DNA of 64,000 nucleotides from an uncultured Chloroflexia bacterium (lineage in GTDB: Bacteria; Chloroflexota; Dehalococcoidia; DSTF01; JALHUB01), in NCBI GenBank assembly GCA_963703345.1, contig OY969814.1, positions 608,001 through 672,000 of the forward strand, read 5' to 3'. The position numbers and the translations under genes were made by a program. Numbering within the stretch: the stretch's first letter is position 1; every line of letters begins with the position of its first letter. Shown in pieces: positions 8,820 to 38,770 of this stretch. The notes below the pieces were generated by a model. It was not told where the DNA came from and made no database searches. It saw only the letters and a program-made list of their open reading frames with translations.

Positions 8820-9140
8820 TCACTTCCCACCGGCGACCCCCTTGTCGTCACTCGGACGAAGATAGCTCTGGTAGAAATCGTGCACGTAGCTTGCGCCGCG
8901 GCCCAGCACAACGCCGCTCAGGATGACGCCCAGAGCGGCGGGCCGTGGCGACAGTCCCAGCACGTCGCGTGTCATGTCGACATTGTACGTCCAGGCCAGC
9001 AGCACGCCGACGGCCACCGCGACGTAACGAATAACGTCCGCCGGCAGTCGCGCGGCCGAAAGCGGCGCCGCGAAGAGGTACTCTGTCAGGCTCTCCGACA
9101 GAAATGCCAGCGCTGTGATTGCCAGAATCGGCTCAATCAT
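8820..9140 (-). CDS. Holin-like membrane protein
   Basis: Three hydrophobic segments, ESLTEYLF and SGVVLGRGASYVHDF pattern, last gene of the structural operon. Confidence 0.6.
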   Translation of the reverse strand: MIEPILAITALAFLSESLTEYLFAAPLSAARLPADVIRYVAVAVGVLLAWTYNVDMTRDVLGLSPRPAALGVILSGVVLGRGASYVHDFYQSYLRPSDDKGVAGGK

Positions 9141-9152
9141 TTCCTCCTCCCC

Positions 9153-9365
9153 CTAGCTGTAGACCGCCACGACCACCGCGTCCTTCGGATTGCCGTCATC
9201 GAAGAAGATGACCGCGCAGCTCCGTCCCGCCTGCATCTCCGACGCCGCGATGTTCCGCGCCACCGGCACGCCCGCCAGCCACACCGAGAGGCTTCCCGCC
9301 AGGCGAATCGTCGCGCTGTAGCTCCCGGCGTCGAACGACTTCACTTCTGCCTTACGCACCACCAT
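9153..9365 (-). CDS. Small tail/baseplate protein (OB-fold-like, resembles GpV/gp5 N-terminal domains)
   Basis: RKAEVKSFD...ATIRL...WLAGVPV...GRSCAVIFFDDGNPKDAVVVAV; directly follows the hub-like gene. Confidence 0.5.
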   Translation of the reverse strand: MVVRKAEVKSFDAGSYSATIRLAGSLSVWLAGVPVARNIAASEMQAGRSCAVIFFDDGNPKDAVVVAVYS

Positions 9366-9378
9366 TACGAAGGTCCTC

Positions 9379-11361
9379 CTACACCGCGCCCAGACGCAGT
9401 CGCATCGCGTACGTTGGGTCGGCGCTACTCCGTGAATAGCGAAGGCTAAGCCCTGTCACCCGTCGTGACGCCGCGTTCAGCCCCGCCCGAGCGTCGGTTA
9501 CCGTCACAACGTCGTACAGCTCCTGGCCGCAATTCGCCGGTACAACGATCTCCTCCGCCCGCGACGCCATCGTCGCCTCGCGGAGCAACGCGTCGGAGCG
9601 ACTCTGGGCGTCTGCCGCTGTCGTCAAGTTCAGATCCTGCACCTGCAGCAGCCGGTCGTACGTCACGTCGACGCTCGGCCAGTCGAACGCATCGACCATC
9701 ACTCCGCGGCCGAATACCTGTACCCGGTTCACCTCGCGGTCCGGGACGCCGTAGCGACCGCTCAGGACGGCGTGACCCGTCCCATACGCGTAAGTCGAGG
9801 CATCTCCGGCCAGAGGGTTGAGGATGAGGGCGGTCTCGCCGGTCATTCGCACAACGTCCGGCACCATCCCGAGGAGGCGCCGTACACTGGTCAGACCGTC
9901 CTCGCCCGGGTGAATGGCGAAAGACGGCTTCAGCGAGGTCAGCGCCGGGCTCGAGCTGAGGCTGCCCGACTCCAGTCCCGCGCGAGCGAAGATGAAGCTC
10001 AGTATCTGGAAGACGTTACTGTCACCGGCGTTCCAGGCGTACTGACGGCGGGCGCGCCAGTGTCGCAGCAGCCACCAGCCGTCTCGCGCCAGCAGCGTGA
10101 AGGTTGACGCGCCGTCGCGGCAATCGTATTCCCAGCCCTCCAGCCAGTAACGCGGCCCGATGGAGACGCAAATCCCCTGGCTCGTCACGAAGCCGGGGCT
10201 CACGTCGACCTGTGCCGACAGGCCGACAACCGAGTTTGCGCCCGCCGTCAGGTCTGAGTAGCGGCCGTCGTCGTTCCGCAGAACGATGCGGACCAGCCCG
10301 TCGAACGGAGCGACGTCCTCGCGCAGCTCCAGCACGTCTTCGCTCACGTCGAGCGCCGCCGCGCTCAGAGGCGCGCGCCATACGCCCGCGGGCGACGAGA
10401 GCCACGCGTAGCTGGGGCTGTGCGTCATCGCCATGCCGTATTCCGCGGACGTGTCGAACGGCACCGGCTCGCGCCAGGCGTTCGCAGCGAAATCACCGAA
10501 AATGGAGACGTGAGTCCAGACGGGCCGGGCGTATGCCTGGCTGCCCGTGTACTTCTCGACGAAGAACAGGCGCAGCAGATCGGCGCGATGAAGGCACGGA
10601 GCGCGAAAGGTCACGTTCGAGCCGGCGTCGGCCCGCGTCAGCTCGGCTAGCGCCGACCATGTGTCCAGCGGCTGATTGAAGCCGTCGCCGTAGACAGCCG
10701 TCCAGACCTTGGCAGCGCCGTTCGAATCGGTTCCTGTGACGACGACGTCGAAATCCAAATCGTAATAGCAGGCCAGGCCCGTCACGCCGGCGACGCTGTT
10801 GCTCCAGGCCGTCGCCGCGCCCCACGAGCCGCCGCTACGCTTGACGCGGAAGACGACGCCGCCGACGGAGTAGAACACCAGCGCTGTGCCGTTGCTCTTC
10901 AGCTCGCCGGCCAGGGCGGTCACCGCGCCGGAGGCCGTCGCCACCGTCACGGCCGTCCCGAACGATTGCCCGTAGTCGCTGCTGGCCCTCACCTTGACCG
11001 TCACGCCGTCCGTGTCGACGTAGAAGAGCAGCACGCTCGCCCCGCTGCTCGCCAGGGCGATGGCCGCGTTCAAGGACACGCTCGCAAGCGCCGACCAGGA
11101 CGCGAAGTTCGAGCCCGGCCCCGGCGAAGCGACGCGCTGTATTAGCAACTGCGCCGTCGAAGGGTCCACTCGCGCACGGATGAGACTTCCATCGCCGGGC
11201 ATGGTGACGGCGTGAAAGTAGTCAGCCTCGGTGCCGCTATACAGCCGCTCCCAGCTCAGCCGCGCGACGCCGCCGATCTGCCCGCGGATCTGCACCTGCA
11301 CGTAGGGGACGGCGCTCGAGCTCTTCTGAGCGGCCAGCAGGGCACTGTCGAGGTTTCGCAT
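9379..11361 (-). CDS. Large tail/hub-like structural protein, 660 aa
   Basis: Beta-rich, Trp-containing N-terminal half; C-terminal half resembles baseplate hubs (VNRVQVFG, QELYDVVTVTD); position in the structural operon. Confidence 0.6.
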   Translation of the reverse strand: MRNLDSALLAAQKSSSAVPYVQVQIRGQIGGVARLSWERLYSGTEADYFHAVTMPGDGSLIRARVDPSTAQLLIQRVASPGPGSNFASWSALASVSLNAAIALASSGASVLLFYVDTDGVTVKVRASSDYGQSFGTAVTVATASGAVTALAGELKSNGTALVFYSVGGVVFRVKRSGGSWGAATAWSNSVAGVTGLACYYDLDFDVVVTGTDSNGAAKVWTAVYGDGFNQPLDTWSALAELTRADAGSNVTFRAPCLHRADLLRLFFVEKYTGSQAYARPVWTHVSIFGDFAANAWREPVPFDTSAEYGMAMTHSPSYAWLSSPAGVWRAPLSAAALDVSEDVLELREDVAPFDGLVRIVLRNDDGRYSDLTAGANSVVGLSAQVDVSPGFVTSQGICVSIGPRYWLEGWEYDCRDGASTFTLLARDGWWLLRHWRARRQYAWNAGDSNVFQILSFIFARAGLESGSLSSSPALTSLKPSFAIHPGEDGLTSVRRLLGMVPDVVRMTGETALILNPLAGDASTYAYGTGHAVLSGRYGVPDREVNRVQVFGRGVMVDAFDWPSVDVTYDRLLQVQDLNLTTAADAQSRSDALLREATMASRAEEIVVPANCGQELYDVVTVTDARAGLNAASRRVTGLSLRYSRSSADPTYAMRLRLGAV

Positions 11362-11372
11362 GATCGTTGGCG

Positions 11373-12008
11373 CTACTGCTGGAGGTTGTCCGCCTGGTTA
11401 ACGGCGGGCTCGGCGGGCGCGTACAGTCTTCGCACGCGAACGGCGCTGCGGTGCCCCTGCCTCGCAAGCGCCGTTGTGAAGGAAGCGAGTCGCTGCTCAC
11501 CCCAGACCAGGTAGTCGCGCCAGGTGTCCTTGCCGCCGGCGTTGACGCGGTTCGTTGCGTAGCTTGCCCACTCCACCGCCGCGTAGCCCGCCGCGCCCGT
11601 CGCCACCACGTCCTCCAGCGACGCCGGCAGCGTCGAGCCGTTTTCGTCCAGCGTATGAAGCTTGCCGTAGTAGAGGTTGACGCTCGTCGCCGACACCGGC
11701 GCCGAGTCGACGAGCAGCGTCAGCGTGTCGCCCCAGATGCTGAAGGGAACGTAGGCCGGCGGATACAGCGCCGTTGGATACTCGACCGCCTCCACGACGA
11801 GCCGGTCCGTCAGCGATGCCAGCGACAGGTCGCGGCTCCCGGCCGTCGTCGTCAGCGCCGCTTTCGCGTCCAGCGGCGATGCCAGACTCGCCTCTCGCAC
11901 CGCGCGGTCTACGTGACGATTCAACTCGTCGTCCGACCATCGGTAACTCGAGGCGTCCTGGTCGTGAAGGTCTCGTCGCAGAAGGCTTCTCATCGCGGAA
12001 AGGTTCAT
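11373..12008 (-). CDS. Head-tail adaptor-like protein
   Basis: MNLSAMRSLLRRDLHD...YRWSDDELNRHVDRAV helical adaptor pattern; downstream of the capsid gene. Confidence 0.6.
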   Translation of the reverse strand: MNLSAMRSLLRRDLHDQDASSYRWSDDELNRHVDRAVREASLASPLDAKAALTTTAGSRDLSLASLTDRLVVEAVEYPTALYPPAYVPFSIWGDTLTLLVDSAPVSATSVNLYYGKLHTLDENGSTLPASLEDVVATGAAGYAAVEWASYATNRVNAGGKDTWRDYLVWGEQRLASFTTALARQGHRSAVRVRRLYAPAEPAVNQADNLQQ

Positions 12009-12397
12009 TGCTTCTCACTCCCCTGAATCGATGCCGTCAGCGCCGTCGCCTGCGCCTGCCCGCGCGTGACGAGGCCGGCCAGTGCCCGGACCGCCGTTTC
12101 TATGTCCTGCAGCCCCAGGCTCCCCTCTTTACTCGCCAGCAGCGCCGCCAGATCGAGTTCTTCCTTCGTCATGCCCCACTGCGGGTCCGGCGAGTGGCGC
12201 GCCACAGCCTCGCTCACTGCCTGCTCGACGTCCGGCGTTAGCGTCTTCTCGTCGACATGCACCGTAAGCGTCATCTCACCCTCCGGCGACGGGCCGCAGG
12301 CGCTGAGCCCCTGCAGCCCCGCCATTCCCGGCAACCCTCGTATCTCCTTCGTGAGCTGGTCGAGGCGAATTGCTTTGCCGCTGATCTTGATTTCCAC
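12005..12397 (-). CDS. Hypothetical protein of the particle cluster
   Basis: 130-aa ORF, GGAG RBS, stop overlaps the start of the adaptor gene. Confidence 0.6.
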   Translation of the reverse strand: MEIKISGKAIRLDQLTKEIRGLPGMAGLQGLSACGPSPEGEMTLTVHVDEKTLTPDVEQAVSEAVARHSPDPQWGMTKEELDLAALLASKEGSLGLQDIETAVRALAGLVTRGQAQATALTASIQGSEKQ

Positions 12398-12422: not shown

Positions 12423-12824
12423 TTAGCTCGGCGTGGCGTAGATGTTCAGCAGCAGGCTTGTCGCCGTCGCCGAGATCACTTTGAGGAACACCGTCGCTCC
12501 CCGAACCTCCGCCTCGAGGGCGGGCTTCGGATTCAGCGCCAGGTCCTGCTGACTAAAATCGTGGTCGGCGCCGCGGAAGTACTTGCCGGCGCCGCTGTTC
12601 CAGTTCAGGACCTGCACCTTGAGCGCCGTCAGGCCGCTGCTGCCGCTCGTGTCGATGTCGAAGCGGATCCGGCGGTAGCCCGTGCAGTTCACCCCCACGG
12701 ACGCCGACGCCGGGTCGCTGCTGTCGACAGCGGTCAAGGCCGGACGGTGCAGGACCGTCGGCGCCTCTTCGTATACCGGCCCCTTGGGCACTCCGCGTGT
12801 GTCGATGCGAACGTCGGCCATCAT
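12423..12824 (-). CDS. Beta-rich hypothetical protein (possible head decoration or spike base)
   Basis: 133-aa ORF with GGAGG RBS, first gene after the internal promoter; function inferred from position only. Confidence 0.55.
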   Translation of the reverse strand: MMADVRIDTRGVPKGPVYEEAPTVLHRPALTAVDSSDPASASVGVNCTGYRRIRFDIDTSGSSGLTALKVQVLNWNSGAGKYFRGADHDFSQQDLALNPKPALEAEVRGATVFLKVISATATSLLLNIYATPS

Positions 12825-12869
12825 TCCTCCCTGCTCTTTCGAAGGCCTCTCCCTTCGAAAGCGAGAGCA

Positions 12870-12898
12870 AGAATAGAATATGTGTGCTATCCCGTCAA
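12870..12898 (-). promoter_or_regulatory. Sigma-70-type promoter with LexA-like operator (neck/tail operon)
   Basis: Minus strand TTGACG-N17-TATTCT; box AGCAC-ACAT-ATTCT at 12875-12888. Confidence 0.7.
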
Positions 12899-12964
12899 CG
12901 CTGAAATGTCACCCTCGGCCGGCTTTGCGACCGTGCACGTCTTCCGCCGGCCTCCCCGACGCAG

Positions 12965-13025: not shown

Positions 13026-13913
13026 CTACGTGCGCACTCCGATCAGCTTCGCAAGCTTCAGGGTGTTGAACAGCGCGAGCGATACGTACCACTTCACCCG
13101 CGTCCGCGTCGCGTCCTTCGTCTCCAGGCTGCCCACGCGCTCCACCTGCAGCCCGCCCGGCGACGTCAGCCCCGCGACCGCGCCTTCGCCCAATCGCAGC
13201 GCGTACACCGTCGAGCAGTCACCGCTGGTTCCCACCGTCTTCGCATCCGAGATGTAGTCGCAGATGCCGATGGGCATGCCGTCGTAGAACTGCGTCATCT
13301 GCCCGAAATCATTGCGGTCCGCTTCGAGGAACGTTCCCGACGTGCGCGCCAGGTTGTTCATCGTTCGCCGCGTTCGCTTGCTCATAAGCAGCATATCCGG
13401 CTTGCCGCCCTTGATCAGGTCGATCACCTCGTCCAGCTTCGCCAGCGCAAGCGTGGCTCCGTTCGTGCCCATCGTCGCGATCTGACCGGCGTCGCACACC
13501 TTGTCGATCCCGTCGAATGACTTCGTATCGACGCTCGAGTCGCCGTTGACGAAAGTGTCCTCGAACTTCTGCTGCACCGCCTTCGCCTTGAGGTGGACGA
13601 CAGCCGCCTCCAGGTCCTGCACGCTGCTGCGGGTGGCGAGCAAGAAGTTATCGATGTCTGCGTCGCCGCCGACGATCTTCAGCACCGCAGTGATCTGCGC
13701 GAACGTCGGCGTGCTCTCCGTCCAGGTGTCGCCCACGTCGTAGAACGCCGCCGTCGCCGCCGCGTTCTCGCGATTGTACGTGAGCCCGTTTCCGACGATC
13801 TCGATGAACGGCAGCGATTGCAAGATCGGGCTGTCCTTGACGATCGTCTCTATGACGCCCGTAAGCAGGACGTCGTTCGACAGTTTCGATGCTTCGACCA
13901 GAGTTAGCGCCAC
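13026..13913 (-). CDS. Major capsid protein (HK97 fold)
   Basis: MALTLVEASKLS...VIETIVKDSPILQSLPF...YNRE, GGDADIDNFL, FVNGDS...FDGI, RTRVKWYVSLAL; strong GGAGGAG RBS; follows the scaffold gene. Confidence 0.88.
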   Translation of the reverse strand: MALTLVEASKLSNDVLLTGVIETIVKDSPILQSLPFIEIVGNGLTYNRENAAATAAFYDVGDTWTESTPTFAQITAVLKIVGGDADIDNFLLATRSSVQDLEAAVVHLKAKAVQQKFEDTFVNGDSSVDTKSFDGIDKVCDAGQIATMGTNGATLALAKLDEVIDLIKGGKPDMLLMSKRTRRTMNNLARTSGTFLEADRNDFGQMTQFYDGMPIGICDYISDAKTVGTSGDCSTVYALRLGEGAVAGLTSPGGLQVERVGSLETKDATRTRVKWYVSLALFNTLKLAKLIGVRT

Positions 13914-13996: not shown

Positions 13997-14533
13997 CTAC
14001 GACCGCTTCTGGCTCAGACCGAGGCGGATCTTCTCGACCGGGCTGAGCGCAGAGTAGTCCGGCGCACCGCGCGGCGGCGACCCCGTCGGGACACGGCCCA
14101 CCTGCGCCTGCGATTCCAGCCGCTCCCGCACCTGCCGGACGGTCTGCCGAGCCCGCTCTGCCGCTTCCTCCACCTCCTCTATCGACTCGCCGGACACCAG
14201 CTCCTCCGGCAGTTCAGGGGCAGCCGCCAGGAGCGCCTCGCGGTACTTCCCGGCGGCTGCCTGGAGGCGGGCCTGAAGCGTCTGGTTCTCCTCTTGCTTT
14301 GCCGTCAGGTCTTCTTCGAAGGCGGCTAGCTGCGCGCTCGATTCGTCGAGCCGCTGCCGCGCCGACGCAAGCTCGCCCTCCGTGGCCTCGAGCTGGCCGC
14401 GCAAGCCCTGGTTCAGCTCGTCTAGATGCAGAGCGCGCGCTTCGCTGTCGGCGGCCGCCACCTGGAGCCGCTCGCTCTCCGCCCGGGCTTCCGCCAACTG
14501 CTCTTGCAAGAGCGCGACTTCCTCGTCTGACAT
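13997..14533 (-). CDS. Capsid scaffolding protein
   Basis: Acidic coiled coil, Pro-rich linker, C-terminal LSPVEKIRLGLS helix; directly upstream of the capsid gene; ATG at 14533 follows GGAGGG. Confidence 0.7.
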   Translation of the reverse strand: MSDEEVALLQEQLAEARAESERLQVAAADSEARALHLDELNQGLRGQLEATEGELASARQRLDESSAQLAAFEEDLTAKQEENQTLQARLQAAAGKYREALLAAAPELPEELVSGESIEEVEEAAERARQTVRQVRERLESQAQVGRVPTGSPPRGAPDYSALSPVEKIRLGLSQKRS

Positions 14534-14567
14534 CTCGTTGCCCTCCACTCAGCGTTCGACGGCGGCA

Positions 14568-14597
14568 AGGATAGAAGATATGTTCTAAGGCGGTCAA
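14568..14597 (-). promoter_or_regulatory. Sigma-70-type promoter with LexA-like operator (scaffold-capsid operon)
   Basis: Minus strand TTGACC-N18-TATCCT; box AGAAC-ATAT-CTTCT at 14573-14586. Confidence 0.7.
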
Positions 14598-14642
14598 CAG
14601 CTTCGTGTCACAGTCGAAAGGAAAGCCACTGATGCGCTATCA

Positions 14643-16007
14643 TTGACGCCAGCCATGCCCGTTCAAGAGGATCCGCCGACGGTCGACGACCACCCGTCGC
14701 CCGCGTCAGTGATGCGCCGCCGCCGCTTTCCTTCGCACCTTGTCGCGGCCGCGCTCATCCTCGTCGTCGCCCTCGTCGCGCGCAGCGTCTGGGTCGCCTA
14801 CGCGCCCTCGAACCCCATGGACGGCCGCATCTTCAACGACACCGTCTTCTACTACTACTCAGCGGCCAACTTCGAAAAACTCGGTGGTTACGTGCAGCCG
14901 TACACGGGTGCTGCCACCGCCTCCTGGCCGCCCGGCTACACCTTTCTCCTCCTCGGCCTGTTCAAGGTGTTGCATCCGCACGTGTCTATAGCCTGGGGCG
15001 CGAACATCGTCCTGGGCGCGCTGACCTGCGTGGCGGTCTACTATCTGGGGCGGCTCGTCGCGGACCGGCGGACAGGCCTCATTGCGGGGCTGGTGCTCGC
15101 CCTGTTTCCCGGCCACATCTTCTTCTCGTCGCTTGTGCTTTCGGAGGTGACGTTCACCTTCCTTGTCACCATCGCTCTGCTGCTGGCCGCGCTGGCGGCT
15201 CGACGGCTCGAAAAGCGCGCCGTGTGGCTTCTGCTCCTGCTGGGGGTGACGATCGGCGCGGCGGCGCTCGTGCGAGGCCAGGGCCTCTACCTTCTGCCCC
15301 TGGCCGCGCTCTTGTGGTGGCTCCAGGCCGGCGGCTGGCGGCGCGCCCTGCGCTGGACAGCGATTACAGCCCTCGCGGCGCTCGTCCTCGTTGTGCCCTG
15401 GACCGTACGCAACTATGTCGTGATGGGCCACTTCGTCCTCATCAGCACGAACGTCGGGGGCAACCTGTACGTCGGCAACTTCGACGGCGCGACCGGCCAC
15501 ATGGTCTTTGGGGCCGGCGAATGGGCGAGGACTCGCTATTCGGACCTGTCGCCGGAAGACCAGGAAGTGGCCGTTGGCAACGCGCTTCTGAAGGAAGGGC
15601 TCAAGTTCATGTTCACGCACCCGGTCCGCGAGGTGCAGCTGACGGCGTCGAAGATACGCGGGCTGTACGAGGACGACGAAGAAGGGTTGCGCGGCATCCC
15701 GAATCACCAGGCCGGCGAGACCATCCCCCACGCCGACCGCATCGCAGACGTGGCGAACGTCTACTACTTCGCCGTGCTGGCGCTCTCCGGAATCGGCCTG
15801 GCCTTGTGGCGACGCCGATGGCGGACCCTGCTCCTGCCGCTCCTCGCCGTGGCGGTGTTCACGCTGGGACAAATCCCGTTCTTCACCGACCCGCGCTTCC
15901 ACTATCCGATGCTCCCCGCGTTCGCCCTCCTCGCCGCCGCCGGCATCGTCGCGTCGATCGACGTCGCGAAACGCCTCCTCGGCGCCCGTGTCGCCGACGC
16001 TTCCTGA
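14643..16007 (+). CDS. GT-C membrane glycosyltransferase (ArnT/PMT_2, GT39-like)
   Basis: Polytopic; DTVFYY, WPPGY, LVLSEVTFTF, PWTVRNY, STNVGGNLYVGN, DPRFHYP. Confidence 0.85.
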   Translation: MTPAMPVQEDPPTVDDHPSPASVMRRRRFPSHLVAAALILVVALVARSVWVAYAPSNPMDGRIFNDTVFYYYSAANFEKLGGYVQPYTGAATASWPPGYTFLLLGLFKVLHPHVSIAWGANIVLGALTCVAVYYLGRLVADRRTGLIAGLVLALFPGHIFFSSLVLSEVTFTFLVTIALLLAALAARRLEKRAVWLLLLLGVTIGAAALVRGQGLYLLPLAALLWWLQAGGWRRALRWTAITALAALVLVVPWTVRNYVVMGHFVLISTNVGGNLYVGNFDGATGHMVFGAGEWARTRYSDLSPEDQEVAVGNALLKEGLKFMFTHPVREVQLTASKIRGLYEDDEEGLRGIPNHQAGETIPHADRIADVANVYYFAVLALSGIGLALWRRRWRTLLLPLLAVAVFTLGQIPFFTDPRFHYPMLPAFALLAAAGIVASIDVAKRLLGARVADAS

Positions 16008-16137
16008 TCCGACCCTGTCCGCCGCCCGCTTCGTCACCGGCCAGTCACCCGCCAAATCGCGGGGCATTATCACGATTCCCGCACATCGTCGCCGCGGTTT
16101 CTCATGGAGCGTGCATAAATAACGTGTAAAGTGATGG

Positions 16138-16728
16138 ATGGTGGTGGGAAAGGAGAAGGGAGAGATGTTGAGGAGAAGAGGAACAACAACAATCGAACAG
16201 AAGGCCCCCTCAGAGGGGACCGGAACTTCCCGTGGCGGGACGCTGCGGGAGGGACCTGGCGGGGATGAGCCCGGCCGATACAGTGGCGACGTCCGGCAAG
16301 AGTCGTCTGTTGCTGCGCCGCCCCGGGGCGACGGGCACGCTGTCCGCGAGGAAGAGCGGATGGCCGGCAGAGAAGCGATGATGGAACCGCGTCCGATGGG
16401 ACTCGGGCAGTACCTGGCGAACTGGTTTACCCTGCTCGTCGGTATCCCGCTGGTGGCGGCCGAGGCTGTGCTGGGCTTGAGGCTGTTCTTCAAGCTGGCG
16501 TCCGCGGACAACACCAACTGGATCGTCAAGTTCACCTACCACTTGAGTAGTGTGTTGATCAGGCCGTTCACCGACGTCATCACGAATCACGAGCTCGCCG
16601 GCGGCATCTTCGAGCCGGCGGTTGTGATCGCCATGGTGCTCTTCCTGATCGGCTCGGTTCTGGCGATTTGGGTAGTGCGGTCTCTGGCGACGCTGAAGTC
16701 ATTGGGTAGTGGACTGATCTGGCGGTAA
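16138..16728 (+). CDS. YggT-like membrane protein
   Basis: LGLRLFFKL...WIVKFTYHLSSVLIRPF...FEPAVVIAMV; start uncertain. Confidence 0.65.
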   Translation: MVVGKEKGEMLRRRGTTTIEQKAPSEGTGTSRGGTLREGPGGDEPGRYSGDVRQESSVAAPPRGDGHAVREEERMAGREAMMEPRPMGLGQYLANWFTLLVGIPLVAAEAVLGLRLFFKLASADNTNWIVKFTYHLSSVLIRPFTDVITNHELAGGIFEPAVVIAMVLFLIGSVLAIWVVRSLATLKSLGSGLIWR

Positions 16729-16914
16729 CAGCGCCGTCAGCGGCCGCGCCTGAAAGCGGATAGGAGAAGAAGATACCGCCTGCAGAACAAGAACGACGTC
16801 GATCTTCTTCCCTGAGCAGCGGTTGATGAAGCCGCTGCTCACCTTTATGCGCCGGTCCCGGCGTCGGGTGAGCGGCGGCTTCCGCTGGCCTGACGCGTCG
16901 TCGATAATGGGCGC

Positions 16915-27602: not shown

Positions 27603-27615
27603 GAGAATAGCTATT

Positions 27616-30845: not shown

Positions 30846-31361
30846 CTAGCCCTCTGTAGGCGGCTCGCGCCAAGGTTCTATCGCCTTCGCTGCAACCGGA
30901 GGGCGCATGGCGTACCAGGACAGAGGCCAAGCCATTATCGCTGTCGACTTCACCCCCTCTGAGTCATCGAGAATGAGGGCAACAAGCGCAAAGGCGATTA
31001 TCACGGTGAGCAGGCCCGGCAGGAATAGCAGGGGGCGGAGGGGCCACACTCGAATCCACAGCCAACTCGTCGCCATGAGTAGACCGGCAAGCGGCATCCA
31101 TAGTAGCTGAGCCAGAATCCCAAAGATGCCCAACGTCAAAACGAGCAAACAACCGGTCGCGGCTTTGGTGAGGTACCCGACCGGAATGAGAACGAAAGTG
31201 AGCACTGAGCAGATGCCTATTGAACAGCGTAGGGCGAAGCGCGTGACGACATCCGCCTCGTCAATGATGGGGTCTAAGCTGGCCAGAATAGTTCCGCTAC
31301 CGCGCACGCGGGTATTCTGCGCTTCCGCCGGAGGCGCGTCAAGGGGCGGGCCCACCTTCAC
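30846..31361 (-). CDS. Multi-pass membrane protein (paralog A); start uncertain
   Basis: Hydrophobic; TSWLWIRVWPLRPLL...AWP. Confidence 0.55.
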   Translation of the reverse strand: MKVGPPLDAPPAEAQNTRVRGSGTILASLDPIIDEADVVTRFALRCSIGICSVLTFVLIPVGYLTKAATGCLLVLTLGIFGILAQLLWMPLAGLLMATSWLWIRVWPLRPLLFLPGLLTVIIAFALVALILDDSEGVKSTAIMAWPLSWYAMRPPVAAKAIEPWREPPTEG

Positions 31362-31437
31362 CTTGACGGAGCCCTCGGCACGACGCACAATGGCCGCATT
31401 CCCCTGCGAATCATGCGGGTGAGGGACGGGAGTATGG

Positions 31438-31929
31438 GTGACGTTAGGCACCGCGCGGGATTGGAGGGAACTAGGGGTGCAGTTGATCAGGATAGGAAAC
31501 TCTATCGTCGAGGAGTATGATCTCACCGGTCTTGCGGCCGTGTCCAGTCGCATTATTATCGGGGGCTTCATGATTGTGATGTGGCCCTTCTTGCTGGTGG
31601 GGATAGTGCTGGGCATCCCTCTCGCGGTCGCCAAGGGTTGCTTGCCATGTCTCTTCGCAATTCCTTTACTGTTGTTCAACGTGGTTCACCTGGTGCTTCT
31701 GGCCCCTCTTTTGGGCACGAGCTATCTATGGGGTAGGGCACCGCTGTTGCGCCCCGTGCTCATGATCGTGTCTATTCCCATCGCTCTGATTGACGCAGCA
31801 TTTCTGCTAACAATGCACGGGATGCTGGAGAACCCAGGAACGATCATCACGGTGCCGCTCTCATGGCCAGCTACGGTCAGAGCTTTCGAAAGAAGACAGA
31901 TCAGAACGAATCCAGGGCTCCCTTTCTGA
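31438..31929 (+). CDS. Multi-pass membrane protein (paralog B)
   Basis: Hydrophobic; TSYLWGRAPLLRPVL...SWP. Confidence 0.55.
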   Translation: MTLGTARDWRELGVQLIRIGNSIVEEYDLTGLAAVSSRIIIGGFMIVMWPFLLVGIVLGIPLAVAKGCLPCLFAIPLLLFNVVHLVLLAPLLGTSYLWGRAPLLRPVLMIVSIPIALIDAAFLLTMHGMLENPGTIITVPLSWPATVRAFERRQIRTNPGLPF

Positions 31930-31976
31930 TGCCGAGGCATTCGATGCCGCGCCGCCGCAAGGTAGGGGCTGACTCG

Positions 31977-32771
31977 TCAGCCGGCTTGTGGGGGCAGTTT
32001 CGGCAAGTGGGGGAGGTCACTCATGGTCACCCACGGCCACTCACGCTTCGGATCGTATGCGTACTGACCCATCCTGAGAATCAGCACGTTGACCGCTGCC
32101 TTGATCCACTCAATTTCCTCTGGGGTGTGATCACGAGGCACGAGTGGCATCTTGCGTGCTGTTTGCTCGTTTCCGACTTCGGTACTAAGGTGGCCCAGCT
32201 TGCTAAGTACGTGCAATGCCACAGAATAGCGATTCGACGCCGCAGACCGGCCCCCTGCTCTTCTTTGGAGAACTGTCAGGCAGAAATAGGCCATGTCGGT
32301 CAGCCGCACCCGGTGATCTAGATAGCTGCGAAACAGAAACCACATGGTCTCGACGTCCGGAGAGATGTCGAAGTCGACAGGCGGATCTGGATACTTCCTG
32401 CTGGTGACGCTGAGTGTGGGGGGCAAGGCAACGGCCACCGCGACGGCCACAGGAACATGCACGATTTGGGGACTTCCCGGCGGTGGCGGGTCGCGATCAA
32501 TAATTTTCGCCGACTCGAACTCAAAGTGGAAGCCAGAGGTGCCCGACCGAAGGGCCGTTCCCATCTCCCACCTGTCCAAATACGTCTTGACGCCTTGTCG
32601 TGCGTCTTCTTCGGACGGGTAATGCGTCTGCATTTCGAAGGTCGCGATGTCGTCGCGCAGGGTCAGGCGGAAGTCATTGGTGTTCCACTGGACTGGCGGT
32701 GGATTGTCAAAAATAATGCCTGCTGCGGCGATGGCTCGATAGCGCAGCAACTGGACGTGTGGATCTCTCAT
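31977..32771 (-). CDS. Hypothetical cargo protein
   Basis: 264-aa ORF from MRDPHV with GGAAGGG RBS; beta-rich N-terminus and helical C-terminus. Confidence 0.65.
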   Translation of the reverse strand: MRDPHVQLLRYRAIAAAGIIFDNPPPVQWNTNDFRLTLRDDIATFEMQTHYPSEEDARQGVKTYLDRWEMGTALRSGTSGFHFEFESAKIIDRDPPPPGSPQIVHVPVAVAVAVALPPTLSVTSRKYPDPPVDFDISPDVETMWFLFRSYLDHRVRLTDMAYFCLTVLQRRAGGRSAASNRYSVALHVLSKLGHLSTEVGNEQTARKMPLVPRDHTPEEIEWIKAAVNVLILRMGQYAYDPKREWPWVTMSDLPHLPKLPPQAG

Positions 32772-32818
32772 CGAATTGCATCCCTTCCGCGCTATTCTGC
32801 GCTTCCGCTCTAGGCGCG

Positions 32819-33451
32819 TCAAGGGGCTGTAACGCTTAGGCCGGCCGAAAGCTCCTTGTCGCCCGCAAGCGCTAGCGCCTTGTGGCGGCGCAGGTGACAG
32901 GGCCGACATCTAAGTTCAAAACCTTCAGGCCAGCAGCCGTTCTCGTCGTGGTAGCGCACCATAGCCCGGTAGAGGCGGGTTCCGACACCATCGCGTAGAG
33001 GCCCAGCAGGATATCGGATGTCGCCCCGACCATAGATGTGATCTAGGTGGTCGCCCCGTGGCCCGCATCCGTTCTGGCCGACCGGAACACCACAGTCGAC
33101 GCATTTGCCCCCGTAGCCGGCGAGCACCTTAGAGCGGACGGCCGCGTTGCGCGCCCGATCCCGCTCCCGCGCGCCCTCCAGATCAGCAGTGCGGTGGGCC
33201 CGGTTCAGTGCGTTCCTATGCGTCGGCTGACATTCTGGGCAGTGTAAGGGAGGCCGGGTCGTCGATATCATACGAGCGCCGCAACCAACGCATTCGGTGA
33301 GTAGGTTGGCCCCGTAGCGCTTGCGCTTCAGTGTGTTGTCTCGCTTCCGCTGACACTCTGGACAGCGCCACCGGACGCCCGTTGCTGGCTGGACGATAGG
33401 CACGCCGCAATCTAGGCAATGAGTAGGGCGGGCGACCTTCTTGTAAGACAT
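32819..33451 (-). CDS. Zinc-finger plus HNH-like endonuclease
   Basis: Four N-terminal CxxC motifs (two zinc fingers), then CVDCG...LDHIYG...GFELRCRPCH. Confidence 0.7.
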   Translation of the reverse strand: MSYKKVARPTHCLDCGVPIVQPATGVRWRCPECQRKRDNTLKRKRYGANLLTECVGCGARMISTTRPPLHCPECQPTHRNALNRAHRTADLEGARERDRARNAAVRSKVLAGYGGKCVDCGVPVGQNGCGPRGDHLDHIYGRGDIRYPAGPLRDGVGTRLYRAMVRYHDENGCWPEGFELRCRPCHLRRHKALALAGDKELSAGLSVTAP

Positions 33452-33644
33452 CTTCTCATAGTGAGTAACGAACGAGTGGCCCCAATGTGTCGAAGAAAAG
33501 GGGCAGATTGCTAGGGGGTAGGTTGCGCCTAGCGATAGACCGAGTAATAAGTGGCACCGACCGGCGTTGTTGTAGGTGATCGCGCATCCGAGACGCCCTT
33601 CAGAGCTGCTAGGTTGTGCCGATGATAGAGGTGAGGGAATCAGG

Positions 33645-35366
33645 ATGAAGAAGGCATTGGGCATCGCGAGGGTTTCGACTGAACGGCAGTCGGCAAATGA
33701 TAGAGTATCGCACGCCGAACAAGCCGCCAAGATTCGCGCGTGGGCAGAGGCCAACGGCTACACTTGCGTCGGCGTGCTAGAAGAGACCGTCAGCCGTAAC
33801 AAGGAACTCGACCCGGACGATCACGATAGCCGTCCGATATTCTGGCAGGCCTGGGATCGCTTGAAGTCCGGCGAGGTCGATGCGCTGGTGTTCTGGGTGC
33901 CCGACCGATTCTGCGCTGGCCAAGGCGGGGCCGACTTCGTCTACTGGCTCGCCCAGAGCCGCAAGTACGGCGACGGGATCCGATTCACGGAGAATGAGCC
34001 GCCACGCGACGGCGCTTACGCGACCATCATGAACGCCGTCGCCGGCTCTCAGGCCCATGCTAGCTGGGATCGGCTGATCGAGATTATGAAGGCCGGGAGG
34101 GAAGGCCACGCCAAGCGCGGCGAGTTCGCCGGCGGCGCATTGCCCTTCTGGATTAAATGGGTAAAGCCGGTCAAGAACGACGATGGCTCGGTGACAAGAG
34201 GCTACTTCGAACTCAAAGCCGAAGAGTCTGCCTTGATGCACCGAATTATCGACCTGTTTGAGGGCGGCCTCGGTAGCGAGAAAATTGCGAACATCCTGAC
34301 CGATGAGCGTGTTCCTACGCCGTCCAGCCGCAGTCCCCAGTGGCGCGAGCACAGCAAGAAGCGCCGGGCGAATGTCTGGGACGGTGCTACCATCCTGTCC
34401 TGCCTCCACAATCGGGCCCTCTGCGGCGAATACATCTTCGGGGGCCGGCCCCGCGGCAAGCTCGACACGCGGGCCCAAGAGCCGGTCATCGTCCCGGTGC
34501 CTCCACTGATCACTAGTGAGCGCTTTGACGCCGTCCAGCAACAAATGATGCGCAATAAGAAGTCTGGAACGGCGCGCCAATCGAGCGGCTGGCCGCTACA
34601 GGGGCTGATACTGAGCGAGGCGTGCGGATACCTCTACTCGGCGCGCACGGATGGCCGCACACAGCGCCGTGTTTACCGCTGTCCCGGCAGACAGGCCAGG
34701 CGGCACCGTGTGGACGGGAATACGTGTCACTGCCCGCCTTTGCCCGCTGACGGGCTTGAGCGGGCGGTTGTAGCGGCCGTGCGCCGGCTACTACAGGATC
34801 CAGACGCACGCCGCAAGGCCGTGGGTGACTACATCGCCAGCCTAGAAAGCCGGAAGGCGGTGCTGGCGGGCCAGTTGGGGCCGCTCGATACTGACCTCGA
34901 CCGGATCCAGACGGCCATCGATGACATGACAGTTGCGGTATCCCTAGGCCGGTTGTCGCGGGATAGGTACGACGCGGAAGTGGCTAAGCTGGAGGCCGAA
35001 CGGATAATGCTGCAGCACCGGCGGGAGAATTTCGGAGCCGTCGAGCGCGAGCTTCGGCAAGTCGAGGAATCGCTGGCCGATATCAACAGCGCGATTGATG
35101 ATGGGCTACTCCACATCAGCGTCGTAGCGCACGGCGGGCACGGGAAGCCTAGCGCCATTGCGTGGCTGGACACCGACTCGGACGATTTCGTGCTGCGGCA
35201 AGAATCCTTTGCCGACCTAGTGCGCCGGCTACGTCTTCGGGTCGTGGTGCGCAGCGATGGCCGCATCGAGATCACCGGGCTACTCCAGCCCCTCGCGGTC
35301 ACGCTTCCTGATGGCCCCAGAACTGCTTCGGCTCCCGCAGGTTCGGATAGACGACGAAGGGGATGA
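33645..35366 (+). CDS. Large serine recombinase (integrase)
   Basis: ARVSTERQS catalytic motif, PDRF, recombinase domain, zinc ribbon (LQGLILSEACG...YRCPG...CHC), coiled coil; ORF reads through the att core. Confidence 0.95.
   Translation: MKKALGIARVSTERQSANDRVSHAEQAAKIRAWAEANGYTCVGVLEETVSRNKELDPDDHDSRPIFWQAWDRLKSGEVDALVFWVPDRFCAGQGGADFVYWLAQSRKYGDGIRFTENEPPRDGAYATIMNAVAGSQAHASWDRLIEIMKAGREGHAKRGEFAGGALPFWIKWVKPVKNDDGSVTRGYFELKAEESALMHRIIDLFEGGLGSEKIANILTDERVPTPSSRSPQWREHSKKRRANVWDGATILSCLHNRALCGEYIFGGRPRGKLDTRAQEPVIVPVPPLITSERFDAVQQQMMRNKKSGTARQSSGWPLQGLILSEACGYLYSARTDGRTQRRVYRCPGRQARRHRVDGNTCHCPPLPADGLERAVVAAVRRLLQDPDARRKAVGDYIASLESRKAVLAGQLGPLDTDLDRIQTAIDDMTVAVSLGRLSRDRYDAEVAKLEAERIMLQHRRENFGAVERELRQVEESLADINSAIDDGLLHISVVAHGGHGKPSAIAWLDTDSDDFVLRQESFADLVRRLRLRVVVRSDGRIEITGLLQPLAVTLPDGPRTASAPAGSDRRRRG
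35314..35323 (+). repeat. att core, right copy (GCCCCAGAAC)
   Basis: Identical to 21055-21064; encodes portal (Q)FWG on the minus strand and recombinase GPRT on the plus strand. Confidence 0.92.
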
Positions 35367-35991
35367 AGCCGTACGGGTTCGCCTTCTGGTCGAGGCGGAT
35401 GTTGTCGACCCACAGCTCGAACTCCTGCTCCGTCCAGACCTCGACGACCTCCGACCCATTCGACCTCGCCTTCGCCGGCGTGACGCCGTACAGCATCTCC
35501 GCCTCTTCCGGCAGCAGCGTGTAGCGACTGGCGACGCGCCACACCCGCGACGTGTCGTCGCCCAGCCACCAGACGAAGATGCCCTGCACGTCCGGCGCCG
35601 ACACGCGCACCCGCCGCTCCGCCGTGTCCCAGGTCACCTTGAAGACGCCGTCGCCGAGGACCGACGCGTCGAGCTCCGTCTCCAGGTCGAGCTGCGCGAG
35701 CTGGTTCGCCTCGTAGACGTCCCGCAGCGCCTTCTCCGCCCGACGCGCGGCGTCCTGCGCCTCCGCCGACTCGTCCAGCGGGTCGACGGCGAAGCTCAGC
35801 CCCGACATCATGTATGACACCGTCTTCTCGATGAGCGCCTTCGCGTAGTTGAAGACGAGCCGCCGCTCACGACGGTTCCGCTGGTTGTCGGGCCACTGCT
35901 CGCCCTGGTAGAAGGCGAGGTTGTCGGCATACGCCCGCAGCCGCGTCTTGTCGAGGCTGGCGAGCTGTTGGGGAAGCGTGAGTCCGGTCAT
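35314..35991 (-). pseudogene. Portal protein, 5' fragment (226 codons) of a split gene
   Basis: LAFYQGEQW, LVFNYAKALIEKTVSYM, ASVLGDGVFKVTWD, NPYGFIPFVVYPN...QFWG, then an element-derived HQEA-stop tail. Confidence 0.88.
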
Positions 35992-36017: not shown

Positions 36018-36320
36018 TTACCCACAACGTCTGAGAATGCGGAAAACCGTCCGCCGTGACAGCGCGAATCGCCGCGCCAGGGCGTCGATGGGCAGGCGCT
36101 CGCAGCGTCGCAGTCGCGCAATCTCCTCGTCGCGGGGCAGCGTGCGCAGGCGTCGCGTGCCGCCCGGCAGGTCGTAGCGACACAGCGGCAGGCGGCAGTT
36201 GAGGCAGGAGGGCGATAGGTCGCAGCCCTCGTCGCGATAGCGCACCTGCTCCGGCAGCGCATCGACGACCGACTGCGCTTCATCGCCAGCTTGGGGCAGG
36301 TCATCCAGTTGCGCCGTCAT
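36018..36320 (-). CDS. Cys-cluster plus HTH DNA-binding protein
   Basis: YRDEGCDLSPSCLNCRLPLCRYD followed by IDALARRFALSRRTVFRIL; lies between terminase and portal. Confidence 0.7.
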   Translation of the reverse strand: MTAQLDDLPQAGDEAQSVVDALPEQVRYRDEGCDLSPSCLNCRLPLCRYDLPGGTRRLRTLPRDEEIARLRRCERLPIDALARRFALSRRTVFRILRRCG

Positions 36321-37737
36321 CTCGAGCGTCCCTCCCCCGCCTCGCGAAGGCGACCCCGCGCCGTCCGCGGCCTGCTGTCCGCCGCCGCCTCCACGGTGAG
36401 CGCCGCGCTCATCAGGTAGTCGTCGTGTCCCTCCGTCGGGTCGACGAAGAAGTTCATCGTTTGATTGGCGCGATAGGCGACGCGCGCCGCCTCCGCCTGC
36501 CGCCGGAACTCGCCGTATTCGTCCGAGGCGTCGCCGGCGTACATGCGCAGCCGGCCGCCGTTCACCGCCGCCAGCAGCGCGTAGCCCAGCCGCGACTTGC
36601 TTTCGCCCGTGAAGCGGAACGGCCGCACGACCTCCTGCCCCAGCGCCGCCGCCAGAAGCCGCGACAGCGTCTCGCCCAGGCCCGTCGCGTCCACCGCGAC
36701 CCGCCGGACGCGCCACGCGCGCCCCAGCACGTTCGACAAGACGCGCCAGCAGCGCGTCGTGTGGCTCGTCCGTCCAGGCGTAGTGCTCGACGATCTCGAT
36801 GCTCGGCTCCTGCACGAGGGCGGCGCGCGACGGATGCGACACGCGGGCAATCGTCAGCACCGTTGCGTCGCGACGCGGGGAGGCCGCCGCCGACGGGTCC
36901 AGCGCCGCGCCGGCGATGTCCAGCCCCGCGACGTACGTCTCCCCCGGCGCCGGCGTCGATTGCCGTCCGTGCGTACCCTGGAGTTGAGCGCGTTGCTGCC
37001 GGTCGAAAAGCCGCCCGCCGCCGTGCAGCGGCCGCAGGCAGTATTGCGTCAGAAAGAGCGGATGGCTCTCGCCCAGGCGCAGTCGCTCCGCCTCCACGAA
37101 CCGTCCGTAGGCCGCGTTGTGCTTCGCGACGCGCTGCCAATCGAATTCGAAGTGGCGGCGGACGCCGTCGCGACGCTCCGCTTCCAGGTTGGCCTGCTTC
37201 GTCCGCTCCAGCAGCGTGCGGTCATCCCAGGCAGTGCCAGAGAACCGTCGTCGCGCCGGTCGAGGCTGCCATGGGACGGAACTCCTTGTCGAACTTCTCC
37301 GCGTCGACGTCCTGCGCCTCGTCCACCTCCAGCAGCACCTGCGCCGTGTGCCCGACGACGTTGCTCTCGCGCTCCGCCGACAGGAAGAGCTGCCGCGCCT
37401 TGCCGACGCTGATCACCCGTCCCTGCTGCCGCGTCGAGATCGACGCCAGACCAAGCTCGCCGAGGCGCGCCCAGAGGCGTCGCATGCTTATGCGGCACTG
37501 CGGCTCGAACGTGGGCGCGCACTTCACGGAGTCGACGTCGCGCAGCATGTTCGCTACCAGCAGAAACGCCTCCAGTTGCGCCGAAAGCTCGTTCTTGCCG
37601 CCCTGTCGTGCCATCTCCACCGAGATCGTCAGCCCTTTGCGATTGAAGACGCTGTTCAGCACCGCGCGCGCCACTTCGACCTGGTAGGGGCGCAGGCGGC
37701 ATCGGACCAACGCTGTCGGCTCGGCTGTCGCGACCAT
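36317..37737 (-). pseudogene. Terminase large subunit with two frameshifts
   Basis: LRPYQ, Walker A MARQGGKNE, Walker B LLEVDEAQD, nuclease YVAGLDIAG / VAVDATGLG / GHDDY spread over three frames; shifts at about 37239 and 36732. Confidence 0.85.
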
Positions 37738-37955
37738 CAGCGCACCAGCCCCAGCACGAACTGCGTGATTACGACGCCGATGATCAGGAAGATGAGGCCG
37801 TTCACGCGCCCCTTCACCTCGTCGAGCTGCTTCTCCAGGTTGCGCAGCCGCTCCTCGACGACGGCGTGGAAGGCGGCGCTTGGAGACGCGCCCCGACGCA
37901 CGGTCCGTCGCTGCGGCCGCGCCTGCCCGCTAGTCTTCGCTTCCGGCGATGTCAC
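37737..37955 (-). CDS. Small coiled-coil protein with C-terminal TM helix
   Basis: EERLRNLEKQLDEVKGRVNG followed by LIFLIIGVVITQFVLGLV; overlaps both neighbours. Confidence 0.6.
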   Translation of the reverse strand: MTSPEAKTSGQARPQRRTVRRGASPSAAFHAVVEERLRNLEKQLDEVKGRVNGLIFLIIGVVITQFVLGLVR

Positions 37956-38298
37956 CTTCTCCCTCCGGGCTCATCATCCTGCCGTATTCCTCGATCGTCG
38001 CCCTGACGCTCTCGGAAAGTTCGGCTTTCGCGTCCTTCGACAGCCGGTAGCTGGCGGAAAGCGCCTTCACCAGCATCTCGACCCCCTTCAGCATCAGCGT
38101 CATGTTTTCCGGATGCTCCTCCAGCGCCCGTCGCAGCCGCAGTCGCAGCACCGCGATCTCCTGGTCGAGGCCCTGCACTTCGCGCGCGACCGCCAGTGCG
38201 ACCTTGTCGCCCTCCGGCACCGCCGAGTCGTAGAAGCCTTCGACGTCCGACGGCCGCCGGCAGCGACGTCGCGGGCGCTTCTTGCTAGCGCCGGTCAC
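37930..38298 (-). CDS. Putative terminase small subunit
   Basis: Helical 122 aa (GFYDS...GLDQEIAVLRLRL) just upstream of the large terminase; call is positional. Confidence 0.5.
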   Translation of the reverse strand: MTGASKKRPRRRCRRPSDVEGFYDSAVPEGDKVALAVAREVQGLDQEIAVLRLRLRRALEEHPENMTLMLKGVEMLVKALSASYRLSKDAKAELSESVRATIEEYGRMMSPEGEGDIAGSED

Positions 38299-38440
38299 GC
38301 GGCAAGCCTTCCAGCACTTCCAGCAGGCCGGTCAGCGCGTCCGGCGGCAGCTTCGCCGTCACCTCGGCCAGGCCAAGCAGCAGGTACAGCGCCACGACGT
38401 TCCACTCCCGCCTCTCAACCGCAATCGCCAATCGAGACAT
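38285..38440 (-). CDS. 51-aa hypothetical protein (absent from the ORF track)
   Basis: Manual translation MSRLAIAVERREWNVVALYLLLGLAEVTAKLPPDALTGLLEVLEGLPRDRR; GGAG RBS; fills the operon gap. Confidence 0.6.
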   Translation of the reverse strand: MSRLAIAVERREWNVVALYLLLGLAEVTAKLPPDALTGLLEVLEGLPRDRR

Positions 38441-38452
38441 ATCTCCGCTCCT

Positions 38453-38770
38453 CTAGCGCCGTCTTTCCTGACGCAGGATCAGCGCTGAAATGAATGCCGT
38501 GCCTGCCAGCAGCGCCAGTCGCGCCGAAAGCCAGGCCGGCGGCCAGAAGAATCCCTCAAGCGAGCCCTGCCAGCGATAGGTCCAGTACAGCGCCAGCGAG
38601 AAGCCGCCTTCGACGGCGATGGCCGCGTTCAGCAGAGCCAACGCCGCGCTCCCGACGCGATGCGACGCCCGCGAGCCCCGCGTGGCCCATCGCTTCGAGA
38701 AGTAGGCGGCGTTGAAACCGGCGCAGAAAATGGTGGCAAAGTCCTGTAGCAGGACGAGAACGTCCGCCAT
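38453..38770 (-). CDS. Three-helix membrane protein, first gene of the packaging operon
   Basis: Hydrophobic segments with basic C-terminus; downstream of the shared promoter. Confidence 0.6.
   Translation of the reverse strand: MADVLVLLQDFATIFCAGFNAAYFSKRWATRGSRASHRVGSAALALLNAAIAVEGGFSLALYWTYRWQGSLEGFFWPPAWLSARLALLAGTAFISALILRQERRR

Follow-up and report, generated by a model that had tools for sequence, protein, structure and literature searches.

A dispersed, phage-derived gene kit of Dehalococcoidia as a candidate gene transfer agent under putative LexA control

Gene transfer agents (GTAs) are grouped as viriforms, comprising the RcGTA-type Rhodogtaviriformidae, BaGTA and VSH-1/BhGTA; according to the accessible text of the paper on these viriforms, such agents are caudovirus-derived, endogenised often over several loci, regulated by the host and inherited mostly vertically, and they package mostly random host DNA, cannot package their whole gene set and deliver DNA to other cells (PMC9662315). 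In Rhodobacter capsulatus, as described in the available parts of two studies, LexA acts on RcGTA indirectly, via cckA (PMC6363796, PMC6473078). Mobile elements that exploit particle genes are represented by helper-embedded phage-inducible chromosomal islands (PICIs), 10-20 kb satellites that, in the text available, lie precisely in late genes of the helper (capsid, portal) at several sites and restore the frame on excision (PMC10111431). Here we describe a set of phage-derived genes, termed the kit, in a 64,000-nt window, the whole stretch of DNA analysed (G000:C1:608001-672000, contig OY969814.1), of a Dehalococcoidia genome that consists of one contig of 2.28 Mb with a GC content of 64.4%; coordinates refer to this window unless a contig or locus is named. 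We consider it probable, judging from the sequences, that the kit encodes an old, phage-derived, domesticated, SOS-gated and GTA-like particle of Dehalococcoidia, which probably packages host DNA.

Domestication is supported because the kit occurs as a single copy throughout the class, is dispersed over the chromosome, is under purifying selection, has partly co-diversified with its hosts and shares a LexA-type promoter. A first-pass annotation, made from the window alone, had proposed a domesticated GTA-like cluster without integrase; its domestication is supported by our analysis, but this copy is damaged and harbors an element with an integrase of its own.

Distribution, inheritance and shared promoter

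The kit was compared across 41 relatives, 301 genomes of the class, a 301-genome sample of the phylum and 80 named capsid loci (G, L and f numbers label genomes, loci or contigs, and families, and X1 is one sequencing run); the named loci and the G-labelled genomes can overlap, and their counts are not additive. The capsid gene was matched in 34 of the 41 relatives, in 183 of the 301 class genomes at a cut-off of E 1e-10 (including some weak matches, few in number and of 25-38% identity, which probably belong to other phages) and in 412 GTDB stretches, its closest named relatives being Dehalococcoidia/Chloroflexota metagenome-assembled genomes. Loci L074 and L089, from metagenome-assembled genomes labelled Tepidiformales, are among those with the capsid. 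The portal gene was found in 192 class genomes, with nearly the same family pattern as the capsid, and the Cys4 helix-turn-helix (HTH) regulator of the kit in 207, each of the three class tallies including the unpublished G224 as one row. Capsid and portal are single-copy in most carrier genomes, and no match for capsid, portal or HTH was obtained in families f21 (0 of 21) and f22 (0 of 11). In the phylum sample 40 of 301 genomes matched, 20 of these outside the class, and eight outside-class loci, read over 14-20 kb, hold differing selections from the genes for portal, adaptor, scaffold and capsid, and neither hub nor HTH.

In single-contig genomes for which both positions are listed, capsid and portal lie 0.6-685 kb apart, with more than 40 kb between them in 16 of 29 cases and more than 100 kb in 9 of 29. 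Given this spread, the kit cannot be one excisable prophage, and where hundreds of kb separate the genes, the implication is that one particle could hardly take up the whole gene set; the extent of compact copies is about 10 kb. Neither an integrase nor replication genes nor fixed ends belong to the kit itself. The fixed anchor at dnaN that had been proposed for the cluster did not hold up. The dnaN gene (7198..8340, minus strand) lies 480 bp downstream of the kit in the source genome, and this linkage is confined to the source genus, being found among the 41 relatives only in G000, G002, G007 and G008 and at 3 of the 80 capsid loci. An anchor at dnaN or the replication origin was rejected, the distance being about 180 kb in G010 and dnaA lying 207 kb from dnaN in the source genome; HD and HIT genes by the terminase operon are more widely common neighbors than dnaN. 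Just downstream of dnaN, close relatives carry another serine recombinase (L114 2744-4114, L023 10503-11873), marking a second integration spot next to the kit.

Reduced forms of the kit were also seen. In the small closed genomes G077 (L131 8733-13203) and G141 (L221 7126-11615) the portal start abuts the hub end, scaffold, capsid and adaptor being gone; HTH and terminase are kept, with LexA-type boxes in L221. At L355-L362 (families f26, f29, f48, f17 and f15) the HTH gene is retained, often beside a terminase fragment, with no match for capsid or portal.

Capsid and RpoB trees of 30 genomes (G048, with no RpoB, was left out) share 9 of 27 splits, compared to a random mean of 0.24 and maximum of 2, and the Mantel correlation between the two genes is r 0.36 (p 0.0006), in a test limited by single short genes and a pieced RpoB. 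Among the 17 capsid splits with support of at least 0.9, six are shared with RpoB, four are compatible and seven conflict, so that the congruence with the species tree envisaged in the first-pass annotation is partial. The mean identity over 435 pairs amounts to 68% for the capsid and 66% for RpoB. Purifying selection was found in a dN/dS check, as proposed in the first-pass annotation, in comparisons with close relatives, with values of 0.08-0.56 for kit genes (capsid 0.13-0.19, hub 0.16-0.31, portal 0.12-0.34, large terminase 0.11-0.27) relative to 0.02 for dnaN and 0.11-0.53 for three host neighbors; the C-terminal row of the large terminase was left out of the dN/dS and N/S values. Relaxed selection on the source-genome branch was not seen, the packaging genes having an N/S of 0.55 there and of 0.61 in G002. 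The inheritance of the kit leans towards a mostly vertical mode, in co-diversification with the host.

As noted in the first-pass annotation, the blocks of the kit have their own promoters. Four composite promoters were identified on the minus strand, at 38861..38907, 14567..14611, 12866..12912 and, ahead of a dispersed kit gene, 56338..56381; two of these upstream regions were paired by a repeat search, and a third matches them. They share a design of a hexamer (GTGACA in the first), 8 nt, TTGAC as the -35 element, 3-6 nt, a 16-bp palindrome and a -10 element, with the palindrome placed between -35 and -10 as a promoter-overlapping, LexA-type box (38869-38884, 14572-14587 and 12874-12889 in the first three). 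A search across the 80 loci with a pattern from which the hexamer had been left out gave 42 matches, compared to 0-3 in five shuffles, and the hexamer, though not searched for, was present at 46 of 58 sites (the sites not being mutually independent). With a position weight matrix derived from the relatives, the four kit promoters rank top in the whole source genome, with scores of 58-40 (52.2 for the first promoter, 40.5 for the fourth) relative to a maximum of -0.7 in the shuffled genome, and the next two sites in the ranking have the palindrome without the hexamer. The same palindrome, which we take to be the Chloroflexota LexA box, occurs twice before lexA and once before an IMS/DinP-family gene of the source genome, so that, on sequence grounds, a motif of host lexA and IMS genes overlaps the kit promoters as in a LexA regulon; our literature search found no paper on a Chloroflexota LexA box. 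These data make it likely that the shared promoter is under LexA control and governed by DNA damage. In families without the HTH gene, 5 of 5 boxes in four genomes lack the hexamer, and no box was seen in three more such genomes or in one additional region; we infer that the HTH protein binds the hexamer.

The switch might thus work as follows. DNA damage would lead to LexA cleavage and uncover the box between -35 and -10, whereupon the Cys4-HTH protein, bound to the hexamer 8 nt upstream of -35, would boost all operons including its own, a self-reinforcement that could confine production to few cells. Terminase would then fill a scaffold-built head, and the adaptor would close this head and carry propeller-hub, spike and variable fibers without a tail tube, resulting in a short-tailed particle. 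The cargo would be chromosomal DNA, because the kit lacks integrase, replication genes and fixed ends and is often scattered.

Related sites occur elsewhere in the source genome. Two near-identical ones with hexamer and -35-like word and no LexA-type box precede uncharacterised genes (G000:C1:1618241 and 1619307), and further LexA-type boxes lie at G000:C1:1960419, 1188878 and 2018924, one of them before a small, presumably KTSC-like gene followed by one for a 652-aa ATPase. A weak LexA-type box after a TTGAC word was seen upstream of a restriction-modification (R-M) methylase (17618-17633).

Gene content of the kit

The phage genes described in phage order by the first-pass annotation (capsid, SU10-type adaptor, portal, scaffold-like and terminase pieces) were confirmed, all on the minus strand. 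From 38770 downward, the packaging operon opens with a 105-aa membrane protein with three predicted helices (38453..38770), followed by a small terminase candidate (37930..38298), assigned by position and by its L269 homologue, which matches small-terminase PHROGs, a 72-aa protein with a single C-terminal membrane helix (37737..37955), the large terminase gene terL (36317..37737), the Cys4-HTH regulator (36018..36320), which weakly resembles Mor/late activators and is the putative activator of the kit, and portal codons 1-226, similar to SPP1 gp6 (35314..35991). The portal N-half is followed by 14,259 bp of foreign DNA, beyond which lie portal codons 227 to end (20410..21054), a type II R-M pair and then three genes of host type; the two portal halves form a single open reading frame (ORF) in relatives. 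The R-M pair (17809..20393, plus strand; Eco57I-like methylase and XamI-like nuclease, 59% GC) occupies a variable slot and is not part of the inserted element. The host-type genes fill the variable slot between portal and scaffold (14643..17451, plus strand) and comprise a PMT-like glycosyltransferase (14643-16007), as noted in the first-pass annotation, and two uncharacterised genes; the YggT-like assignment of one ORF (16138-16728) was not retained, Pfam giving no hit. About half of the 30-kb span originally assigned to the cluster (8820-38770) consists of the inserted element and the R-M pair. The host-like composition ascribed to it holds for the structural block (65.9% GC, 75th percentile of tetranucleotide distance), is borderline for the packaging block (68.4%, 94th) and does not hold for the element (60.7%, 96th-99th).

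The terL gene, intact and of about 450-470 aa in relatives, is disrupted in the source genome near 37238 and 36732, where two uncompensated indels, a 2-base loss and a 1-base gain, set it apart from the three relatives covering the gene; in about 20 kb of coding DNA these are the sole uncompensated indels relative to all three. A sequencing error as their cause is unlikely in view of this low number and of the recurrence of one of them in an X1 contig (the X1 contigs did not cover the other). ATPase and nuclease motifs are present in 35 of 37 TerL sequences, and no relatives were found among PDB sequences.

The structural block continues on the minus strand with a scaffold-like coiled-coil protein (13997..14548), recognised by position and conservation, and an intact HK97-type major capsid protein (13026..13913; PHROG 212, 3.5e-70; Pfam Phage_capsid), whose closest matches among cultured phages, at about 41%, are Pseudomonas Ab18-like and Clostridium phages. 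A role of the capsid protein as a bacterial toxin component was rejected, the weak matches to PDB sequences (E 7e-4 or worse) being attributable to chance compared to the PHROG match. A conserved 133-aa protein without a recognised family (12423..12824), whose role as decoration or fiber base would be a guess, a 130-aa protein in a variable fiber slot (12005..12397) and an SU10-type head-tail adaptor (11373..12008; PF24175, 6.1e-7) precede a 660-aa protein (9379..11361). The latter, termed hub/spike-like in the first-pass annotation, is a baseplate hub by predicted fold: in its model (predicted local distance difference test 91) the N-terminal half is all-beta and propeller-like, with propeller lectins among the lower structural matches, and about 340 residues match Mu gp44 (E 1e-15), T4 gp27, VgrG and contractile-system hubs (E down to 8e-17) in Foldseek. 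Sequence searches found no relatives of the hub among cultured phages or PDB sequences. Directly behind it lies a conserved 70-aa protein (9153..9365) with no solved relative, for which position would suggest a spike OB-fold; neither this nor the 133-aa protein had relatives found by search. The last gene before dnaN encodes a 106-aa hydrophobic protein (8820..9140) present only in close relatives (5 of 80 loci). Its holin-like character, proposed in the first-pass annotation, appears weak, as it has a single marginal membrane segment and falls into a PHROG of no known function.

A dispersed member of the kit, a 154-aa fiber-slot protein (55814..56278, minus strand), lies inside the operon in same-family relatives; together with its own composite promoter (55814-56381) it is located 17 kb beyond the span originally read. 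Fiber-slot genes are strongly variable between relatives. The window contains no tRNA, and large proteins with cohesin domains are encoded at 56524-63727, among them one of 1191 aa in which there are three such domains.

Mobile elements in portal and capsid genes

The portal gene is interrupted at codon 226/227 by a satellite-like element of 14,259 bp (21055..35313, plus strand), most genes of which are antisense to the portal. A 10-bp core repeat marks the junctions with the portal N-half (35314..35323, minus strand) and C-half (21055..21064, minus strand). The element encodes a large serine recombinase with Resolvase, Recombinase and Zn-ribbon domains (33576..35366, plus strand; likely start 33648), whose 3' end crosses the junction. 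Thus, of the integrase, replication and repressor genes that the first-pass annotation had reported missing, replication genes are indeed lacking, a recombinase is present as part of the element, and the kit does contain a regulator in form of the Cys4-HTH protein. Further element genes, all on the plus strand, encode a topoisomerase-like protein (23574..24701; PHROG 6247), a 225-aa protein (26925..27602) for which a Psu-like assignment is a lead only (score 0.89), an HK97-type prohead protease-like protein (27616..28329) and a protein with a weak RAMA domain (29127..29852); HTH and HNH genes are also part of the element, as is an RNA-recognition-motif protein (25591-26250). In a sister element on the IMG/VR contig L309, inserted at the same portal codon in reverse orientation with a 55% identical recombinase, the 225-aa, protease-like and RAMA genes occur in the same order (35%, 41% and 38% identity, respectively) together with a large terminase (1e-37) and a TIR gene, in a kit that otherwise looks intact. 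From the two orientations, the crossover would be predicted at the single self-complementary dinucleotide of the shared core.

Empty-site contigs from three runs join 21054 to 35314, the one from X1 stemming from another strain as judged by its many substitutions. Assembly error as the cause of the insertion was ruled out by a 350-bp X1 contig bridging one occupied junction with zero differences (X1 is possibly the source sample). The contigs searched showed no same-strain empty site or circle joint. Precise excision would restore the portal in frame. Among the 301 class genomes the recombinase matched the source genome only, and no relatives were found in metagenome contigs or, for the element protease, in viral contigs; an 82% identical recombinase lies at the same junction in G003, where capsid and portal C-half were not found. 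Most likely, the element is a parasite that uses a conserved coding stretch as attachment site. Because the portal is split and terL carries two frameshifts, the kit copy of the source genome is probably inactive, and the indels suggest that decay began after the insertion.

Moreover, similar insertions were found when genomes with several or weak matches (33 for capsid, 37 for portal) were followed up. Insertions with a serine recombinase interrupt the portal in G021 (14 kb), G163 (30 kb) and G227 (31 kb, recombinase partial) and the capsid in G021, G029, G065 and G165, in the last two across contig breaks, which with G000 amounts to at least eight insertion events in at least seven of the 301 class genomes. 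The portal sites cluster at codons 211-227, with a short shared word at each junction, and the recombinases are 21-35% alike except for the codon-226 family. Among the cargo are defence genes, with PifA and methylases as examples. The G163 insert (L125-L126) is a 30-kb prophage that has a terminase, a portal and a tape measure of its own, and that of G227 (L127-L128) contains a YcaO-TfuA-radical SAM cluster as well as a gene for an RHS-repeat protein. In addition, duplicated 3' ends of capsid or portal genes were seen 1-6 kb downstream or on another contig (L105 5804-5878, L118 9303-9446, L227 13362-13571), which suggests insertions that rebuild the gene end.

Competing explanations and relation to known systems

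Several observations weigh against a domesticated, DNA-transferring particle. No tail tube, sheath or endolysin gene was recognised among the ORFs of the kit, the tape measure family PF10145 was not found anywhere in the genome, and no endolysin was seen, though Mur ligases were found in the genome, which leaves particle release unexplained. The kit is often lost: 118 of the 301 class genomes, among them all those of f21, f22 and f26, gave no match for the capsid, nor did 4 of the 8 other genomes of the source genus; G026 and G042 have decayed copies, and copies with an internal deletion occur in G077 and G141. With respect to regulation, recA has no LexA-type box, G055 carries the hexamer without an HTH match, and f26 and f29 retain the HTH without portal. 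The seven conflicting capsid splits, for example that involving G137, contradict RpoB with good support. On the IMG/VR contigs L262 and L269 the head module lies beside a tyrosine integrase, on L261 a capsid of 61% identity occurs within a different gene set, and the capsids of all three (61-66% identical) nest among host capsids, so that the incongruent trees and phage homologs which the first-pass annotation had named as grounds against its proposal are encountered in part. Finally, short-range purifying selection has also been reported for defective prophages.

Such findings would be expected if the kit were a module from a pool of small temperate phages that re-enter Dehalococcoidia and leave long-lived selfish or neutral remnants in the chromosomes. 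The nesting of integrase-linked relatives in the capsid tree, the tree conflicts, the frequent loss and decay and the damage to the source copy all fit this view, but the single copy in most carriers, the absence of replication and tail-tube genes from the kit, a conservation equal to that of RpoB and the congruence at family level do not. In addition, 77 of 80 IMG/VR contigs are shorter than 16 kb (median of those fetched 6.3 kb) and most show the kit only. A phage pool is already largely refuted by kit pieces that lie up to hundreds of kb from one another, each with its own promoter copy, and we consider this explanation improbable. A domesticated and SOS-linked kit whose particle serves to deliver proteins or a toxin via hub and spike, to divert phages as a decoy or to store DNA would account for the best structural matches of the hub (contractile injection systems and VgrG), the lack of a recognised tail tube or endolysin, the variable fiber slot and the lineages that retain regulator or terminase only. 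However, the conserved terminase motifs and the co-occurrence of portal and capsid point to DNA filling, and nothing resembling a sheath or tube to drive injection was seen, so that such a non-transfer function appears unlikely.

The element, in turn, might be a programmed switch by which the host gates the making of particles, excision upon DNA damage joining the portal again, comparable to the skin elements in sporulation genes. The precise insertion with restorable frame and the sister element in the otherwise intact-looking kit of L309 agree with this possibility, as does the delay of late-gene expression by excision in helper-embedded satellites, according to the text available (PMC10111431). 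Nevertheless, the element is rare, its recombinase being matched in one of 301 class genomes, sites and recombinases differ between hosts (the recombinases being 21-25% identical), both uncompensated frameshifts in the coding DNA compared hit terL, capsid and portal C-half are missing from the matches at the same insertion site in G003, and the empty site in X1 belongs to a different strain; a host-serving switch has therefore only a small chance of being correct. A fuller version of the GTA-like particle, in which an independently domesticated, tube-less GTA switched by LexA and its own activator is parasitised by serine-recombinase satellites that block portal or capsid, excise on damage and leave in the particle, is conceivable, though we regard it as doubtful.

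If the GTA-like particle carried host DNA, it would provide a gene-exchange route, none having been found described, for an abundant and mostly uncultured class that includes dechlorinators and inhabits soil, sediment, groundwater and the deep sea, and GTAs would have a further, independent origin, with a switch that is simple and testable. GTAs have been proposed to supply templates for DNA repair, and direct control by the SOS system would be relevant to this proposal. As a particle design, a tip that lacks a tail tube would be unusual, and through mobile elements that repeatedly enter portal and capsid genes, the range of helper-embedded satellites would widen from prophages to a particle owned by the host. 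Kit fragments are catalogued as viruses in IMG/VR. Our literature search, in which subscription journals were thinly covered and supplements excluded, found no description of the kit.

The kit does not qualify as a functional prophage, which would have its own integrase, att ends, replication and tail genes as one unit: the only recombinase is that of the element and is missing from this place in relatives, and the modules are scattered. The hub resembles Mu gp44 (1wru), T4 gp27 (1k28), VgrG and contractile injection systems (7aef, 7b5h), but differs from known baseplate hubs in being fused behind a propeller-like half and in following directly a podophage-type adaptor without genes for tube or sheath. 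RcGTA has a gene set that includes tail tube and tape measure, and an alphaproteobacterial host; the kit is set apart from the RcGTA family by its Chloroflexota host, by PF10145 not being found and by the lack of a tube gene, a distinction drawn without direct protein alignment. The Dehalococcoides mobile element IME1 is particle-forming and from the same bacterial class, but as a filamentous or budding type with a tyrosine recombinase, and with neither 'terminase' nor 'portal' occurring in the available text of the preprint, it represents another system (bioRxiv 10.64898/2026.09.15.751708). Similar to helper-embedded PICIs, as far as these are described in the accessible text, the element in the portal is integrated precisely in a late gene with a restorable frame (PMC10111431). 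It differs from them by unrelated serine recombinases, by both orientations (antisense in the source genome, co-oriented in L309) and by a target gene within a non-excisable chromosomal kit, and domain and PHROG searches gave no AlpA or primase hit; by analogy, the element would work like the helper-embedded satellites, falling outside them in integrase type and gene content.

With regard to control, the kit would resemble RcGTA, as portrayed in the available text, in combining an SOS repressor with a dedicated self-activating activator, GafA in RcGTA and the putative one in the kit (PMC6363796, PMC6473078). It differs in that LexA-type boxes lie directly in each structural promoter and that the candidate activator is a 100-aa Cys4-HTH protein within the packaging operon. 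Like the viriform GTAs, in the terms of the accessible text, the kit has a caudovirus-derived capsid, portal, adaptor, terminase and hub and is endogenised over several loci, including a dispersed gene with its own promoter; it differs from the known ones by its phylum ('Chloroflex' does not occur in the text available) and by the absence of a recognised tail tube or tape measure (PMC9662315). By the viriform definition the kit is a GTA candidate and not of the RcGTA type.

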